Source of the DNA: Promethearchaeota archaeon
GTDB taxonomy: Archaea > Asgardarchaeota > Lokiarchaeia > Sigyniarchaeales > Promethearchaeaceae
Length of the DNA stretch: 32,000 nt
Direction: 5' to 3'
Assembly (NCBI GenBank): GCA_016933055.1
Contig: JAFGBS010000028.1
Location: forward strand, 120,001 to 152,000
Below the pieces are notes generated by a model. That model searched no databases and was not told the origin of the DNA. It saw only the letters and a program-made list of their open reading frames with translations. The position numbers and the translations under genes are program-made. The stretch's first letter is position 1, and each line of letters begins with the position of its first letter. Positions 4,416 to 18,855 of this stretch are shown here, piece after piece.

Positions 4416-4700
4416 ACTCTTCCAGCCAATCGGACAATTGAATTTTTTCTGGATTAATCATTAATTTCCTCGTTCTTAAGGGATTCTATGAATCCTAATT
4501 ACATTTTATTAAAAAAAGAGAATTGAATTATGGAGAGTGAAGAAAGATACATCCTCATCAATTCCTAAGTATAGATTTAAGAAATGAGTCTCAAAAAATT
4601 CGTGAAATCTTTATTTTACGAAAAATGACATTTTTAATCGAAACTGTAGATTCACAAAACAGTGATTGAATTAAAAATTCTTTACAACTTATATCACAAT

Positions 4701-4982
4701 ATGGATGCAGACCGTAAAAGAAGATACCGAGAAAAGATTGCATACATCATCGAAAATATGGAAAATCTTCCTGAAGCGACTAACTCGGTCAAAAAGAAAG
4801 CAATCTTTTATGATCTCCACACAAGTATAGAAGCTTGCTTAACTTTATTATCAATGATTGCGAAAGATTTAGGAATGGGAGTTAAAGATGATCGTACAAA
4901 TATCCATCGTATAGTTGAAAATCGGAATCTTAACAAAGAATTAGAGGAGGAGCTTTGTGTTATGCTGAGTTGTGTAAAATAG
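4701..4982 (+). pseudogene. 3'-truncated HepT/DUF86 (HEPN RNase) gene
   Basis: MDADRKRRYREKIAYII...IFYDLHTSIEACL...GVKDDRTNI resembles the N-terminal two thirds of DUF86. Similarity stops near LEEEL (about 4955), before the R-X4-6-H motif. No MntA partner is adjacent. Confidence 0.7.
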
Positions 4983-5010
4983 AGAGAAAAAAGAAAAGTT
5001 GTATTTAAAA

Positions 5011-5130
5011 TTAGAATCCACGCTTTTTCTTACGGAGCAGGAAGAATGCTGCAACTCTACCGATAATAACTGCTAAACCTACTGCTCCTACTGTATAGTA
5101 CCACGTCCAAACAAAACTAATCACGTCCAA
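5011..5130 (-). pseudogene. Orphan C-terminal membrane-anchor coding remnant (or a tiny membrane peptide)
   Basis: Open frame LDVISFVWTWYYTVGAVGLAVIIGRVAAFFLLRKKKRGF*: a hydrophobic helix plus basic tail, typical of surface-protein C-termini. It is preceded by stops, a 10-bp tandem duplication (aatcacgtcc/aatcacgtct) and a repeat copy. Confidence 0.4.
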
Positions 5131-5141
5131 TCACGTCTAAT

Positions 5142-5258
5142 CCTAAAGCCCAGAAAGTTCCCCCGATGTTTTTTCTCGGAAGTTTGACGGAATATAACTG
5201 CCGTATTACATACGTACGTTTACTCACTCACTGGATAGGGTAGAATAGATGTTGAATT
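5142..5258 (-). repeat. Dispersed non-coding repeat, segment A, 5' portion only
   Basis: Colinear with 9063-9180. Identical 16-mer atagggtagaatagat at 5235-5250 and 9156-9171, plus shared blocks aaacgt, actt.cgagaaaa.aca and tggg.tttagg when read on the minus strand. Confidence 0.7.
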
Positions 5259-5295
5259 GCAAAAAAAAATAAAAATAGATTTGATTTTTAATAAC

Positions 5296-7248
5296 TTACA
5301 AAGGTACAGGATACATTAAATATCCACCGACAAGTAGCCATGTAGCAATTGCAGGAATTATAAACGAACCTAACCAGATTTTTCCTGTCTTTCGATAGAA
5401 TATGATCAAGATTAAGTAAAATCCAGCTGCAAAAGGAACCGTAGCCCATAGTTGTAATACATTCATTGGTGCAAATGCCCAATTATTTAACCAAGGTCCT
5501 GTTAGACCGAGATACATAGGTACATATTGCAAGAGATTTGTAAGGATTAATCCACTTAGCATCACAATACAGATTTTTATCCACCAGATGAATATTGTTT
5601 TTGCTTCGGTTTCGTACTCTTTCTGTCTCATCATTCCGAACATCCAAATACCTGCGTTAAAGATGAAGAACAACAAGAGACCTGGGTAGTATAATATGAA
5701 CTCCAAGGCTCGTGCCCATGTCAGAACTTTCAATCCTGCCCATGGTCCACGAATTTCTACATTCAAGAAAGAGGCTCCATAGGTAACCAGGTACATATAT
5801 CCGATTAGGGATAATGCGATCAACAATGTTTTTCCAAAAACTTTCCATCCTTTCGGTTTAGCTTGCCCCTCTGCTAATTCATCATCAGGAATTTTGTAAC
5901 TTGCACCTAGTTCGTAGAATCCTACCCGTTTAGGACGATAGATGAATGTCCAAAAAACCAGAACTATCAACATCATCAACCCTGCATTTACAACATAGAA
6001 TGCTAGGAAACTATTTCCAATCATACTTGTATAGATTCGGATACCTCGGCTCCAGAAGAATTCCCCGATCATCCAACCATCAAATACCCATGTTGCAACA
6101 TCATTAGCTTGATCTGGGTAGAAATATTCTGTGTTGAAGACATATGTCACAAAGCCGATAGATGCATTTACTATTCCGAATATCCACCATGCTCCAGTTT
6201 TTGGAGCATAAGATTCACGATACTTTGGCATTGGTTTTGCTACTTCTTTAAAGAATTTAATGTTCATCAACAGAAACGCTAAAGGCACAATTGAGAAGAT
6301 TAAAGCAGCCATTGAGATGATACCTGCTAGATCTGCTAACCAATATATAGTATTGCCCATATTTATTGATTCATAGGCTTGTTCTTCAGTGTAACCGCTA
6401 AGAGATTGCAGGAAGAATGCCGTAATTGCAACAGTCGATTTACGACTGTGAGTTTGTCCGGGATGTGTTTTCTTAAGCATCTCCACTCTTGTTGCACCAC
6501 TATTGAAAGTACCATAAGTTTCACCATATTCAGCATCGGATATTCCTAAAAATGAATTCAATGCGTCTAATCCATTTTGAACATGCTGGTCAATGGTTAT
6601 ATTTGCATCTCTAAAGAATTCTTCACCCCAACTAGCAACATGGAGGATATCCAAATTCGGATTAATAGCGCGTGCTATTTGATAAAAACTAATACCAAAT
6701 GCAATTGTGGAACCGGGAACTTCAAAACCAAACGCAATCGGTGCAATAGCTTTAATAGTAGGATCAGCTAAGGCAATCGTATATGTATTGATTGCACCAA
6801 AACTATGCCCAGTCACACCTATATTAGTTTCATCTACAAAATCGAGAGCTTTAAGATAGGCTAGTGCTGCGAAAGGCGTGGGATTAGAAGTAGAGCGATT
6901 TACATTATCCGAGTCCCCGTGATTGAGAACATCTACGGCTAATACAGCAATCCCTCGCTTAGATAGTTCTATAGAATGGGGTCTTTGAACATCTTTATCA
7001 TTATTGTATCCGTGAATAGCTAAAACACCTGGAACGGGGGTAGAGGAGGATGCACCTACTGGTTTATATAATTTCGCAACAACTGTGCCATTCTCGTCTG
7101 GGAAGGAAGGATCATAATCCTCAAATTCTACAATACTAACATCAACAGTCCACCAGTTGCTTTGCACTCCGGACTCAACAACGAAACCTGCAACTGTCAA
7201 GAAGAATAACACTCCGAATACAATCGCAGTTTTTGTAGTTTTTTCCAT
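5296..7248 (-). CDS. Membrane-anchored alpha/beta hydrolase (N-terminal TM, extracytoplasmic catalytic domain, multi-pass C-terminus); probable start 7248, ORF track start 7275
   Basis: VLAIHGY oxyanion region, AVDVLNHGDS, nucleophile elbow GHSFG, candidate catalytic His in THPGQTH, and many hydrophobic helices in the C-terminal half. Confidence 0.85.
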   Translation of the reverse strand: MEKTTKTAIVFGVLFFLTVAGFVVESGVQSNWWTVDVSIVEFEDYDPSFPDENGTVVAKLYKPVGASSSTPVPGVLAIHGYNNDKDVQRPHSIELSKRGIAVLAVDVLNHGDSDNVNRSTSNPTPFAALAYLKALDFVDETNIGVTGHSFGAINTYTIALADPTIKAIAPIAFGFEVPGSTIAFGISFYQIARAINPNLDILHVASWGEEFFRDANITIDQHVQNGLDALNSFLGISDAEYGETYGTFNSGATRVEMLKKTHPGQTHSRKSTVAITAFFLQSLSGYTEEQAYESINMGNTIYWLADLAGIISMAALIFSIVPLAFLLMNIKFFKEVAKPMPKYRESYAPKTGAWWIFGIVNASIGFVTYVFNTEYFYPDQANDVATWVFDGWMIGEFFWSRGIRIYTSMIGNSFLAFYVVNAGLMMLIVLVFWTFIYRPKRVGFYELGASYKIPDDELAEGQAKPKGWKVFGKTLLIALSLIGYMYLVTYGASFLNVEIRGPWAGLKVLTWARALEFILYYPGLLLFFIFNAGIWMFGMMRQKEYETEAKTIFIWWIKICIVMLSGLILTNLLQYVPMYLGLTGPWLNNWAFAPMNVLQLWATVPFAAGFYLILIIFYRKTGKIWLGSFIIPAIATWLLVGGYLMYPVPL

Positions 7249-7447
7249 GATAATCAACTTATTTTTTATCAGCAAATTTTCTGCTGTGGAAATCTTCTCT
7301 AAAAGATATATAAATGTTGTTCAGTAAAATTATAGAGAACGAAGAGTCAGAATCGATTTCATAAAAGTCTTGATAGTATTTTGACTAATTAAAAATTCTG
7401 CCACCTTTTCCAAACACCTTTCTACACAGTACATAGTACTTAAGTAC

Positions 7448-7712
7448 GAACCTCTGTCCATTTGCCCATTTTAACGGATTGTAGATATAGATTCCTATAG
7501 CCTCATGCTACGCATTCGGCTTTTGTTTTAGAATGCTTATCCTCCCTCTAACCCGCACCAAGGACATCTGCTATATACATCTGAACGGGTATTTAGATGC
7601 AATAGATTTCCAAATTGGTTTTATAGTATCAATTCGGTGTAATTTTATGATAATTTTACGTAAATGGGTCAGTAGATTTATCGGATATACCCGTATAGAT
7701 GTTGACTAATAA
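7448..7712 (-). repeat. Dispersed non-coding repeat, segment B
   Basis: Reverse complement is colinear with 10168-10430: tcaacat.tatacgggt.tatcc, aaa.tatcataaaa, cagatgta, gtcct.ggtgc.gg, gggaggat, caaaagccgaat.cgtag, catgaggct, atctacaatc, ggcaaat.gacaga. Confidence 0.75.
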
Positions 7713-7860
7713 AAAACGTATTATATTCAAATTACGGAATCCTATTCTACCTCACCAAGTATTTACAGCATGTTCGGTTATTGACCTTAATCTTGCAGAA
7801 GAGCTTAGAAAAAAATTTATGGGCTTTTGGACAATTAATAGCGTGAGGAGTATCAAGTGA
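7699..7860 (+). CDS. Possible 53-aa ORF or gene remnant overlapping the start of the next gene
   Basis: MLTNKKRIIFKLRNPILPHQVFTACSVIDLNLAEELRKKFMGFWTINSVRSIK*. Its TGA overlaps the GTG at 7857 (GTGA). Its ATG lies inside the repeat terminal motif. No family recognised. Confidence 0.25.
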   Translation: MLTNKKRIIFKLRNPILPHQVFTACSVIDLNLAEELRKKFMGFWTINSVRSIK

Positions 7861-8690
7861 ACATATCAATATATTATTTTTCGGGAACAGGTTCCACGTG
7901 GTGGGTTGTTCAACAATTCAAATCGATTGCAGAAAAACGCAATCATCGAGTCATTTTAACCAATATTGAACATGTCGCCAAAATTGAGGGAAATATAGAC
8001 GAAATCGATGTTTTAGGATTTGCATACCCAATTTATGGTTCGGATATCCCCCAAATCATGAAAGAATTCTTAGACAGATTCAATTCGAATGTAACGGTAA
8101 GAGTGAGGATCCCTGTCCTCGTGTTAACCTCCATGCTATACTTCTCTGGGGATGGAGCCTTGTTACCTCGAAAATATCTTGATAAAAATATGTTTAAAGT
8201 ACTATGGTCTAAGAATATTTCCTTAACCTCGAATATTAGCATACCATTCTTTCGTGTAAATGCTGTTAGTCAAGAAAAGTTAGACAAACGGATGGAAAAA
8301 GCAAAAATCGCGCTCGTAAAACTTATTGAAGATATCGAACTAGGTAAACCAAGACTACGGATCCAATGGGGGATATTTGGATGGTTTTTAAGCTGGATCC
8401 AACGCATATTTGAACGAGGCATGGGTTTTATGATACGTTTTTCAGCAGATTCCGAAAGATGTATTAAATGCTTGAAATGCGTAAAGGAATGTCCAACTGA
8501 AAACATCCATTACGACAAGATTTCAGAAAAAATACTCTATGGGAATAATTGTACATGGTGTATGAGGTGCTATAATCGTTGCCCAACACAGGCGGTATTA
8601 GTAAGAGGCAAATATTGTGATCCCGAGAGGTATGTGAGACTAAAGTCTTTTTCTAAAGATTTTGAGATAATTCTACCCAATAGATTGTAA
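7857..8690 (+). CDS. EFR1-family flavodoxin-fold / 2x[4Fe-4S] ferredoxin protein
   Basis: N-terminal YYFSGTGST and GFAYPIYG flavodoxin motifs. C-terminal CIKCLKCVKECP and CTWCMRCYNRCP. A gaggag RBS-like sequence lies upstream of the GTG. Confidence 0.9.
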   Translation: MNISIYYFSGTGSTWWVVQQFKSIAEKRNHRVILTNIEHVAKIEGNIDEIDVLGFAYPIYGSDIPQIMKEFLDRFNSNVTVRVRIPVLVLTSMLYFSGDGALLPRKYLDKNMFKVLWSKNISLTSNISIPFFRVNAVSQEKLDKRMEKAKIALVKLIEDIELGKPRLRIQWGIFGWFLSWIQRIFERGMGFMIRFSADSERCIKCLKCVKECPTENIHYDKISEKILYGNNCTWCMRCYNRCPTQAVLVRGKYCDPERYVRLKSFSKDFEIILPNRL

Positions 8691-8691
8691 A

Positions 8692-8865
8692 TATCCATCT
8701 TTTTGAAAAACTTCAACTTAAAACTATCATAAAACAGCGTGAAACGTAGAAACACGTATTTAAAATCTGTATAGATATAGAATAGGTAACTGTGAAGTGC
8801 CAGCACTTAAGTAAGATATATAATCCAAAGCCAAATGCGTAGCATGAGACATATATGCATAGCAT
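8692..8865 (+). repeat. Dispersed non-coding repeat, segment B (more diverged copy)
   Basis: Shares tatccatc, aaactatcataaaa (8721-8734), cgt.aaa.gta.aaac, agat.tagaatag and aaagcc.aatgcgtagcatgag (8827-8848) with 10187-10370 and the 7448-7712 copy. Confidence 0.6.
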
Positions 8866-8934
8866 TTGATGGTCCACCAAATTGATGGCACTTCTTACTA
8901 TATACACCTATCCGATGGGATAAATTGGTATCAA

Positions 8935-9180
8935 GGAATAGATGTTGATTAATAAATTCCTTAATCAAAAGGGATCTTGTTGTATAACCTCGTCACACTA
9001 CGCTACAAGTCTACCTAGATGGTTCAACAGAACAATTGCAGTAGGTCTGCAGCGTTGGAGCACCTAAAACCCAAAAAATTTCCAAGGTGTATTTTCTCGA
9101 AAGTCTGGTGTAATACAACGATTATATTAAGTTCAAACGTTTCCTTATTCACTGCATAGGGTAGAATAGATTTGATTAAA
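8935..9180 (-). repeat. Dispersed non-coding repeat, segment A including the A/B junction motif
   Basis: Reverse complement contains attt..tgggtt.tagg..ctcc.acgct..aga.cctac ... tctaggtaga.tt.tagcgtagt, matching 18721-18795. It ends in gaatttattaatcaacatctat, matching the junction motif near 10167-10180. Confidence 0.7.
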
Positions 9181-9318
9181 TAAAACATGTTGTTTACCTC
9201 ATATTTAGAAGTTTTTCATCCTCCATCGTAAAAAGTAGGATTGCTAAAAGATGGATTCCCAATTTTTCAATACTAATCATAGTAAACTATTATTCATATA
9301 ATAAATGAGGAAAATACA

Positions 9319-9891
9319 ATGTTGCTGCAAATTCCATCATGGTTAGAATTTATCTGGGACCAGTTTAATCTCTTCTTAGATTGGTATGTTGCATTAGATA
9401 TTTCAGCCCAGATTTTGGTAGGAATCTTAATTTTTATGGGTTTGATTGCTGTCACCCAGATTATCAAAGGTGTAATTTGGATCACTAAAGAATCAGTGAA
9501 AGCATCACTGTTAATCACTTTCATTATCTTATACCTTATCTTCGCAGGATTCAAAATGGCAATTGTTGCTATTGTAAATGTGAAAACGGTAGATAATGAA
9601 TGGAAACATGTGGTTGATAACATCAAATGGCTTGTAGATCGGTTTTATCCCGAGAAAAAGAAGCATAAAAAACAAGAACCTATTATTATTCAAGAGCAAC
9701 CCGAACCCGTTCAACCACCACAAATCTACGTTATTAAGGAGCGGGAATCTGTTAAAATTGAAGAAAAAAAACCGAAACCAGAATACTGTCACAATTGCGG
9801 ATCACCTTTTAGCTTAAAGATGTTTGAAATGCTACATGAAAAAGGATTTGCATTCTGTGACCAATGTGGGGCAAAATATACTGCGGAATAG
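9319..9891 (+). CDS. Hypothetical membrane protein with a C-terminal zinc ribbon
   Basis: Two hydrophobic N-terminal helices, a Pro/Gln/Glu-rich linker, then CHNC...CDQC. Confidence 0.75.
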   Translation: MLLQIPSWLEFIWDQFNLFLDWYVALDISAQILVGILIFMGLIAVTQIIKGVIWITKESVKASLLITFIILYLIFAGFKMAIVAIVNVKTVDNEWKHVVDNIKWLVDRFYPEKKKHKKQEPIIIQEQPEPVQPPQIYVIKERESVKIEEKKPKPEYCHNCGSPFSLKMFEMLHEKGFAFCDQCGAKYTAE

Positions 9892-9917
9892 ATGTGTTTT
9901 ATTTTTCATCTTTCCAT

Positions 9918-10430
9918 CAATGAACATGTATCCTACATCCTACATGCTATTTTAAGCTCTATCTGTTATACTATTCCATATTTGGTCTCATTCTATGGTA
10001 AAACGTTACCCAAATGTGATGACCGCAGAAATACCCATGGGGTACCTAATATACAATTTCATGGGTTATAGGCAATCCCTACGCTAAAAAAACCTTTCCC
10101 GCGCTCTTTACGGATCGGCTTTTAGCGTAGTTCGTAATATATGGGGTAGTGGGTACAAAATTGGGTAATCAACATTTATACGGGTCTATCCATCAAAAAT
10201 TGAAGTCCTTTAACAGCAAACTATCATAAAAAACCGTCAAATGTATAAACCAGAATCAATTTACGAATCTACACCACTTTAATACCCATACAGATGTAGA
10301 ATAGATCGGTCCTCGGTGCAGGAACGTGGGAGGATGTCAAAAGCCGAATACGTAGTAGAAACATGAGGCTTATTCATGTTAGTATGAATCTACAATCACC
10401 TATCATAGACAGGCAAATTGACAGAACTTC
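9918..10430 (+). repeat. Dispersed non-coding repeat, longest copy (segments A+B, about 510 bp)
   Basis: Identical blocks shared with the 18.6-18.9 kb copy: aacgttacccaaatg (10002-10016), atttcatgggttatagg (10056-10072), ttttagcgtagttcgta (10120-10136). Perfect 11-bp inverted repeat at 10079-10089/10120-10130. The 3' half matches the B copies. Confidence 0.8.
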
Positions 10431-10573
10431 TTATGATATACCCCCTATTCACCTAACGTAACATTTTTGGGTATCACGGGATAAATTTTTACTGCCCAAA
10501 AAGGAATTAAATCCATAAACATCACTTTTTCAACGAAAATAAATATTAAAAATCTGGATAAGATACACTATCC

Positions 10574-11212
10574 ATGCAAAAAGGATTAATGCATTATATT
10601 TATGGAAATGGTCCTGGAAAAACTAGGTCTTCATTTGGTATTGTTATTCGATCCATTGGACACAATCATAAACCCATTATTATTCAATTTCTCAAGCAGA
10701 GCAGTGATTACCCTGAAAATGAACGAGCTTATCTAGAACGCCTCTTAATTGATTTAAACGATCTTTTAGATAAATATAAAATAGAAAATGCACCTTCCAC
10801 ATCCTACCCAAAAGGATTTACATATGGAGAATATTTGGTATTCACAAAACTCTTGAAGGTTCCAGTTATTCAAATTGGTAAACCCACCTTTTTATTACCA
10901 CATCAAAAACCTTCTAAAGAATATTTAACAAAATTTAAATTCGGTATGGAATTAATCGAACGAATTTTAAATAGCGAAGTTTATCATTTGGTAGTATTAG
11001 ATGAGATAAATACCGCTGTAAAAAAGCAGTTGGTAGATTTAAATCAGTTAATTCATTTGTTGAGAAACCGTAGCCCACAAATTGAGGTTATATTGACAGG
11101 TAGGGAAAAAATTCCTGAATTGGTAGAGATTGCAGATTATGTTACTCAAATTGTGGAAGAGAAACATCCTTTTACAAAAGGAATACAAGCCCGAATAGGT
11201 GTTGAGTACTAA
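10574..11212 (+). CDS. cobO: Cob(I)yrinic acid a,c-diamide adenosyltransferase (CobO/BtuR/CobA type)
   Basis: YGNGPGKT P-loop variant, IIQFLK, LVVLDEIN, EVILTGR, ADYVT, KHPFTKGIQARIGVEY. Located next to B12 mutase genes. Confidence 0.85.
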   Translation: MQKGLMHYIYGNGPGKTRSSFGIVIRSIGHNHKPIIIQFLKQSSDYPENERAYLERLLIDLNDLLDKYKIENAPSTSYPKGFTYGEYLVFTKLLKVPVIQIGKPTFLLPHQKPSKEYLTKFKFGMELIERILNSEVYHLVVLDEINTAVKKQLVDLNQLIHLLRNRSPQIEVILTGREKIPELVEIADYVTQIVEEKHPFTKGIQARIGVEY

Positions 11213-18160: not shown

Positions 18161-18597
18161 TTAAAGTACCTCAAATCTATCAAGGGGGATTTTTAATTTC
18201 TAAAATCTATCAACCCAGTAGAAAAATCACCAACTAAAACTTGAAATCAATAATATCTTTATTCCTACTGGTCATGGACGAATCCTATCTTTTTTGTGGA
18301 AAGAAGATAATATTCTAATTAAGAAAATAGTAGAAAAGATGGGATTATCGAAATCTACCGTGACATCCATCTTAGATCGATTAAAGGAAGATGGACACCT
18401 TCTTCGCAACATTTTACCTCTCTAAACGAGAGACTTATGTAGTATAAACGGAGAAAAACTAAGAGCTCCACCATATATATAAAAAAATTTCCGAGGAGAT
18501 GATAGATTAATTTTATCACATCTTTAATGAGCAAGATATTGACGATTTTGAGCAAAAATTAAGACATTTATTAAACAACACATATCCCACAACTTAA
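18157..18597 (+). pseudogene. MarR-family regulator pseudogene
   Basis: ATGA-coupled to the upstream gene. Stitched translation: QGGFLISKIYQ / GHGRILSFLWKEDNILIKKIVEKMGLSKSTVTSILDRLKEDGHLLR / SKRETYVV*TEKN*ELHHIYKKISEEMID*FYHIFNEQDIDDFEQKLRHLLNN. TAA stops at 18235, 18445, 18460 and 18508, plus two frameshifts (about 18240 and 18420). Confidence 0.8.
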
Positions 18598-18609
18598 ACG
18601 CTCAATACG

Positions 18610-18855
18610 GTTCTATCTTGTATAGGATTCCCTATATATACTCGTTCTACGGTATAACGTTACCCAAATGGGATAATCCACGAATTTCCCATGGATAACC
18701 CTATTAACCCTTTGGGTTAGATTTCATGGGTTATAGGAACTCCCACGCTAAAAGAACCTACCGTATGCACTATCTAGGTAGAGTTTTAGCGTAGTTCGTA
18801 CTATGTGGGGTATCGGATACAAATTTGAGTATAGAATTTATTAAAATACGGTATC
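18610..18855 (+). repeat. Dispersed non-coding repeat, segment A
   Basis: Identical blocks at 18656-18670, 18721-18737 and 18784-18800 versus the 10 kb copy. Stem acgctaaaa (18745-18753) / ttttagcgt (18784-18792) with inner ctacc/ggtag. Confidence 0.8.

Follow-up and report, generated by a model that had tools for sequence, protein, structure and literature searches.

The question raised by this locus is what the diverged repeats in its long intergenic gaps are. The window, by which we mean the whole 32,000-nucleotide stretch analyzed (C2:120001-152000), belongs to a 3.76 Mb assembly (36 contigs, 91% complete) of a Loki-type Asgard archaeon. It has a G+C content of about 35%, lacks tRNA genes, and carries ordinary metabolic genes, including those for an ABC exporter, an alpha/beta hydrolase, a ferredoxin-domain protein, CobA, and methylmalonyl-CoA mutase. 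The initial annotation read the repeats as an old, non-autonomous, MITE-like mobile element and named an IS200/IS605/REP-like element and a multi-copy structured ncRNA as further options. Our findings favor the first of these, as the repeats have inverted ends and TA flanks, lie dispersed between genes in both orientations, include truncated and tandem copies, and contain no ORF. They form a superfamily that probably represents decayed, gene-less, non-autonomous DNA transposons of the MITE type.

Element copies in the window

BLAST of positions 9918-10430 against the whole assembly returned 52 matches, which split cleanly at query position ~250 into two modules. This segment had been described as one bipartite A+B element of ~510 bp; the similarity behind that description is real, but the single element is not, as A and B are independent elements that abut and have the TA at 10166-10167 in common. 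Iterated nhmmer searches of the whole assembly converged on models of 243 positions for A and 250 positions for B, and a third, hybrid type was hand-aligned from 18 copies and then given a dedicated nhmmer model. The window holds seven copies, namely a truncated hybrid-type copy, three B, a full hybrid, and two A, with E-values that span 7e-60 to 5e-5. These values, together with a repeat search that paired 5142-5250 with 9063-9171, 10078-10167 with 18742-18831, and 8703-8753 with 10200-10250, place the similarity first noted among these regions far above chance.

Both A-type elements are full copies on the forward strand. The first (9918-10167, 250 nt; A positions 1-243, nhmmer E 7e-60) has a degenerate 5' end (CAATGAACATGTAT) and the 3' end ACAAAATTGGGTA in the end alignment, and the second (18572-18831, 260 nt) covers the same model positions with an E-value of 3e-53. 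The long hairpin of the A module lies at 10079-10130 (+), where the outer stem CTACGCTAAAA/TTTTAGCGTAG surrounds a variable inner stem. This 11-bp stem is present as originally reported, and folds recover the hairpin in 44 copies with different inner sequences. Similarly, the reported motif aatcaacatctat was found both at the start of A and at the A/B junction.

The full B-type element that adjoins the first A copy (10166-10494 (+), 329 nt; B positions 1-250, E 2e-58) begins with TAATCAACATTTAT at 10166-10179 and ends in ...GATAAATTTTTACTG. Alignment of the 3' flanks of 32 copies moves the end of B from 10430, where it had been placed, to ~10494, 64 nt further. A second full B-type element (7386-7708 (-), 323 nt; B positions 2-250, E 8e-46) has, by sequence and motif match, the 5' end TAGTCAACATCTAT at 7695-7708 and the 3' end ...GAATTTTTAATTA. 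In the third (8670-8951 (+); B positions 12-250, E 3e-26), the 5' inverted repeat is gone, but the 3' one, ATAGATGTTGATTA at 8938-8951, is perfect. An ORF for a ferredoxin-domain protein at 7857-8690 extends 21 nt into this copy (8670-8690); homology to its congener ortholog ends at 8669, so the last seven codons and the stop are supplied by the B element. Within B elements, the 5' end also recurs as an inverted internal copy, TATTCTACATCTGT and TATTCTATATCTAT (10290-10303; 8771-8784 (-)), and the leftmost ~140 nt of B may therefore represent a shorter element of greater age. The block GTAGAATAGAT, previously listed at 5240, 9161, and 10296, occurs at all three positions, and its instance at 10296 is this internal copy.

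Two regions that had been assigned to A, 8935-9180 and 5142-5258, represent a third type in which a B 5' module is joined to an A hairpin module. The full copy of this type (8962-9178 (-), 217 nt; hybrid model positions 8-268, E 1e-36) combines a B-like 5' module with the A-like long hairpin and has TA at each end. The truncated copy (5141-5258 (-); hybrid model positions 31-167, E 7e-16) retains a 5' inverted-repeat end that matches the motif, AATTCAACATCTAT at 5245-5258, and is missing the 3' hairpin module. The proposal that a copy fills every large gap comes close to the truth locally, where five of the six window gaps of at least 300 nt are occupied; genome-wide, only ~18% of such gaps are.

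The genes around the truncated copy offer some observations of their own. A HepT-like ribonuclease toxin ORF (PF01934, E 6e-6) lies at 4662-4982 (+), with a 246-nt gap upstream. In the gap adjoining the element copy, a 39-codon ORF at 5011-5130 (-) encodes a hydrophobic single-helix peptide with a basic tail, RKKKRGF, at its end; it is kept in the congener (DNA ~76% identical, peptide 83% over 36 residues) and looks like a small, unannotated membrane-protein gene. On the other side, a 659-aa membrane alpha/beta-hydrolase gene at 5296-7275 (-) shares at least 60% identity with paralogs at other places in the genome, and element copies directly flank both this gene and the hydrolase copy at C30:1304-3193.

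Family size, element ends and target context

Across the genome, nhmmer found 53 matches to A (19 near full length), 69 to B (31-32 full length), 89 to the hybrid model, and 18 to a younger, related family X; hybrid copies number ~18-28, with 28 near-full by the dedicated model. When the matches to A, B, hybrid, and family X are merged, they amount to 119 loci that cover 28 kb, or 0.75% of the genome. The high genome-wide number expected by the initial annotation is thus right in kind (~120 loci), and the window itself is a hot spot with ~6 times the average density. All A and B matches are intergenic and occur in both orientations, and truncated, tandem, and head-to-head copies are found. Lengths fall between 217 and 430 nt, in classes of ~250 nt for A, ~290-430 nt for B, and ~220 nt for hybrids, which consist of the first ~90 positions of B joined to A positions ~125-215. 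The three types are built from interchangeable 5' and 3' modules, as would be expected had the non-coding ends of one or a few parent insertion sequences undergone internal deletion and recombination.

No copy has coding capacity, as stops occur in all six frames of each, in agreement with the reported absence of a long ORF or transposase from the element; the assembly contains no multi-copy ORF family. Pairwise identity over match columns has a median of 0.57 for A, 0.64 for B, and 0.56 for hybrids, and the best pair reaches 0.89. The copies are old, and no recent burst is visible. The chief value of the finding lies in annotation. Much of the long intergenic DNA of this Asgard genome that otherwise lacked an explanation is accounted for by these elements; ~120 loci, along with several contig breaks, can be attributed to the superfamily and one related family, and recognizing them should keep them from being taken for novel RNAs.

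A second, younger MITE-like family of ~245 nt (18 matches, median identity 0.80) occurs outside the window. Its members, found for instance at C17:785257-785511, have TAATC...GATTA ends; the family starts with TAATCTTTTTTTACCGAAGC and ends in ...CAACAAATGTAGATTA. Another copy, at C2:179153-179390, ends in the A/B inverted repeat, and several contigs break inside copies of this family.

A, B, and hybrid elements all begin with TAATCAACATCTAT, and their common terminus is TA-ATCAACATCTAT. About eight B copies close with the exact reverse complement of this beginning, which creates a perfect 14-bp terminal inverted repeat, TAATCAACATCTAT/ATAGATGTTGATTA; copies bounded in this way measure 317-422 nt. 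According to the alignment of 32 copies, the terminus of B is ...GGTATCACGGAATAGATGTTGATTA, with ATAGAATTTAACTA and ATAAATTTTTACTA as variants. The inverted repeat is shorter (TAATCAA) in A and in the other B subtypes, and those A copies and hybrids whose 3' end can be aligned finish in AAATTGATTA, of which TAATCAA is the only inverted part. With at most one mismatch, the end motif occurs 65 times in the genome, against 2 for a reversed control. The only congener has 14 against 4 in the control, and in 59 other relatives the motif stays at background level.

The flanks of the elements are equally distinctive. Abutting copies have exactly one TA in common at all seven junctions, whether tail-to-head, head-to-head, or mixed. 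Beyond this TA the flank consensus is palindromic, TTTTGAY-TA-RTCAAAA, and is the same on both sides when read towards the TA: T occupies flank positions -7 to -4 in 63-89% of left flanks and, reverse-complemented, in 53-80% of right flanks, against a background of 32%. A SINE-like retroposon, considered on account of the T-run in the 5' flank, was rejected on finding the run mirrored on the 3' flank and no duplication of variable length. The 12-mer TTGAYTARTCAA occurs 19 times where 1 is expected; 17 of these sites are intergenic and most lie at element ends, which means that unoccupied sites are rare.

On the preferred reading, a transposase supplied in trans would bind the inverted ends, and the element would be cut and pasted into a TA inside the palindrome TTTTGAY-TA-RTCAAAA, which resembles two abutted element ends. 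A preference for such targets would explain local pile-ups like that in the window. The TA may then be a target duplication. No longer duplication was detected, with direct repeats in the flanks averaging 2.76 against 2.92 in the control, and no 3-bp flank repeat was present at any offset. Among other assemblies, only the source sample contains this DNA, and aligned contigs showed repeat-induced joints but none that skip an element; the Fer4 ortholog in the congener sits in a different gene neighborhood, with no synteny at that one locus compared. As no empty site was recovered, the TA could belong to the repeat itself.

The same flanks could suggest that a site-specific recombinase moves the elements, with crossover at the central TA of TTGAY-TA-RTCAA and the TA as a common core. 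The resemblance of the palindromic consensus on both flanks to abutted ends agrees with this idea, as do the excess of TTGAYTARTCAA mostly at element ends, the one TA common to tandem copies, and the failure to find a known DDE transposase. However, the assembly contains neither a serine recombinase (PF00239) nor an IS110-type enzyme (PF01548), very few unoccupied palindromes are available as possible targets, and long inverted ends are a usual mark of DDE elements, which together make a recombinase of this kind quite unlikely.

Missing transposase and related systems

Profile searches of the assembly gave no matches to PF13358 (IS630-type DDE_3), PF00665 (rve), PF13359 (PIF/Harbinger DDE_Tnp_4), or PF01359 (mariner), the last being a weak search whose control matched 0 of 14 control genomes. 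Likewise, TnpB (PF07282) and the Y1 transposase (PF01797) had no matches in the assembly. The only transposase found is a decayed PF01609 (IS4/5-type) relic on contig C8, whose ends do not match those of the elements and which has no repeats elsewhere. The assembly is thus almost free of transposase genes, yet it carries ~120 MITE-like loci.

The absence of a Y1 transposase and of TnpB bears directly on the IS200/IS605/REP-like option, according to which the repeats would be palindrome-associated or REP-like sequences that a Y1 (HUH) transposase mobilizes in single-stranded form. Conserved hairpins inside the elements are in keeping with that origin. Nevertheless, the ends of the elements are genuine terminal inverted repeats and their flanks are symmetric, whereas that class lacks inverted ends and has an asymmetric, one-sided target. 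At 220-430 nt the elements are also much longer than REP units, which are short; we consider this option highly improbable.

A search for an autonomous relative of the MITE-like elements gave similar results. Among pairs of end motifs within 6 kb, none encloses a recognizable transposase gene. Two candidate long elements, at C13 29734-33062 and C17 58723-60690, were rejected, as their ORFs comprise one for a GATase and others that match no Pfam family. In the congener, PF13358 had no matches and ~10 end motifs that were checked revealed no transposase; the ORFs beside them are host genes for an M24 peptidase and an AlaX-like protein. IS630-type genes exist in related Loki genomes, where one two-copy element has quite different ends, and public collections contained no autonomous element that carries these ends. 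Many contigs terminate within the repeats, which leaves room for an autonomous copy in the unassembled part. Given the age of the copies and the lack of a transposase in the assembly, the family has probably died out, or almost died out, in this genome, its transposase presumably lost.

MITEs are known in archaea, and Sulfolobus SM1 with ISC1048 is reportedly a prokaryotic example derived from the IS630/Tc1-mariner group. Like MITEs of that group, the elements described here are small and gene-less, have inverted ends with TA at both, and occur in many intergenic copies in an archaeon. Unlike them, they are found without a DDE_3 gene in this genome or its congener, and they show a strong palindromic flank preference well beyond TA; their ends also differ from those of the IS630-type element of a related Loki genome. 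Bacterial MITEs with TA ends include the Correia/NEMIS, ERIC, and RUP elements, and BOX elements are modular. The present family resembles the first three in its TA flanks, lengths of 100-400 nt, foldable inverted repeats, and about a hundred copies, and resembles BOX in having subtypes built from interchangeable modules. It differs from all four in its Asgard host and in the lack of any sequence relation. Compared with TA-ended bacterial MITEs, its copies are also much more diverged (median identity 0.56-0.64), with sharply conserved inner blocks. IS30-type elements target ends, inserting beside sequences that resemble their own inverted repeats. The target consensus here, which approximates two abutted ends, and the side-by-side copies with a 2-bp flank in common recall this habit, but no rve-type transposase was found and the likeness is one of behavior only.

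The elements are therefore of an ordinary kind, and their only oddities are the strongly conserved inner blocks and the lack of a mobilizing enzyme in the assembly. IS630 elements have been reported in archaeal genomes (PMC13343696). The words MITE and miniature are absent from two papers on Asgard mobile elements (PMC8813620, PMC11529989), and our search found no relevant paper that pairs "miniature inverted-repeat" with "Asgard." In view of the literature checked, a written description of an Asgard MITE superfamily would be modestly new.

Folding, conserved inner blocks and relatives

In an alignment of 18 copies, pairing in the long A hairpin reaches 83% of cells and drops to 30-46% if the partner column is shifted, and 15 cells carry double changes, against 5.9 in shuffles (0 of 500 shuffles as high). 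These counts indicate that the hairpin is maintained, mostly by sequence conservation and with some compensation. RNAalifold applied to 18 A copies returned no consensus structure. As for whole elements, the fold z-scores on the two strands are -1.47/-1.83 for A, -1.32/-1.24 for B, and -1.66/-1.72 for hybrids, so the gain over shuffled sequence is modest and does not differ between the strands. Such strand-equal folding fits inverted repeats at the DNA level better than a strand-specific RNA. The description "hairpin-rich" was overstated, as whole-element scores for two copies in the window are -0.79 and +0.12.

Two further folding candidates were set aside. B and hybrids at first seemed to fold better on the antisense strand, with more G-U pairs and lower energy, but controlling for base composition removed the difference. 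A separate mobile mini-hairpin family, CCTATC...GATAGG, was rejected, with only 14 occurrences (3 expected), most of which lie within the elements.

Conservation along the elements is concentrated in blocks. The variance of column identity is 2.7 times the binomial expectation in A and 5.8 times in B, a degree of unevenness well beyond that expected had the copies simply decayed neutrally from a master. The inner blocks, nearly invariant among copies of otherwise ~60% identity, recur almost unchanged in a congener copy, for example ACCCGAACAGATGTAGAATAGGT, GTGCGGGAACGT, and GCCGAATGCGTAGCATGAGGC (a tandem-GA hairpin), while the Fer4 protein, the one ortholog compared, is only ~64% identical between the two genomes. 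The simplest reading is that long-lived, constrained master copies lie behind the block conservation, with the blocks corresponding, for example, to transposase-binding or regulatory ends of a lost parent. It is unlikely, if conceivable, that the blocks were selected as protein-binding DNA or structured RNA, or that the elements were moved by an unrecognized recombinase targeting TTGAY-TA-RTCAA. If true, the latter would amount to a transposition system without a known enzyme in a nearly transposase-free genome.

Blocky conservation, with variable hairpins between invariant blocks, is also what a multi-copy structured ncRNA family might show, for instance a guide or scaffold RNA in which blocks and hairpins act as RNA, and both the compensatory change in the A hairpin and the persistence of the blocks in the congener agree with this. 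On the other hand, Rfam gave no match at the gathering score across the window or at E<=1 over 4950-10600, fold scores are equal on both strands, and window copies fold no better than shuffles. Orientation to the downstream gene is not significantly biased (33 co-oriented versus 22, counted by hand), and neither a TnpB nor an IS110 partner is present in the genome. The inverted ends and TA flanks, like the truncated and head-to-head copies, speak for mobile DNA rather than a ncRNA family, which we regard as improbable. An outward promoter in the conserved TTCGTACTATATA block was rejected on the same orientation count. Two metatranscriptome runs of the source study contained only short, low-identity pieces on conserved genes and were uninformative on expression.

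The MITE-like family has a narrow range. Among the relatives searched by BLAST, it appeared only in this genome, with one weak match in the congener, where profile searches of individual loci identified clear B and hybrid copies, several of which measure ~230 nt and carry an inverted end on each side. Enrichment of the family is confined to this genus. One metagenome contig that carries the end motif has no similarity to this genome, and IMG/VR viral contigs gave no matches.

An exact 21-mer from the B core was absent from all other species representatives, with the exception of a repeat in Peptoniphilus. In this Firmicute (Peptoniphilus sp. MAG, NZ_JBMNPQ010000002.1), the 21-nt B-core hairpin AGCCGAATGCGTAGCATGAGG occurs as an exact match at 2141-2161 and 2581-2601 of the locus examined, in some copies of a tandem GTCATCCTGAGCG...CGAAGGATC repeat and not in others. 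We read the match as chance, as it represents one independent locus against ~0.3 expected by our own estimate; it is still curious.
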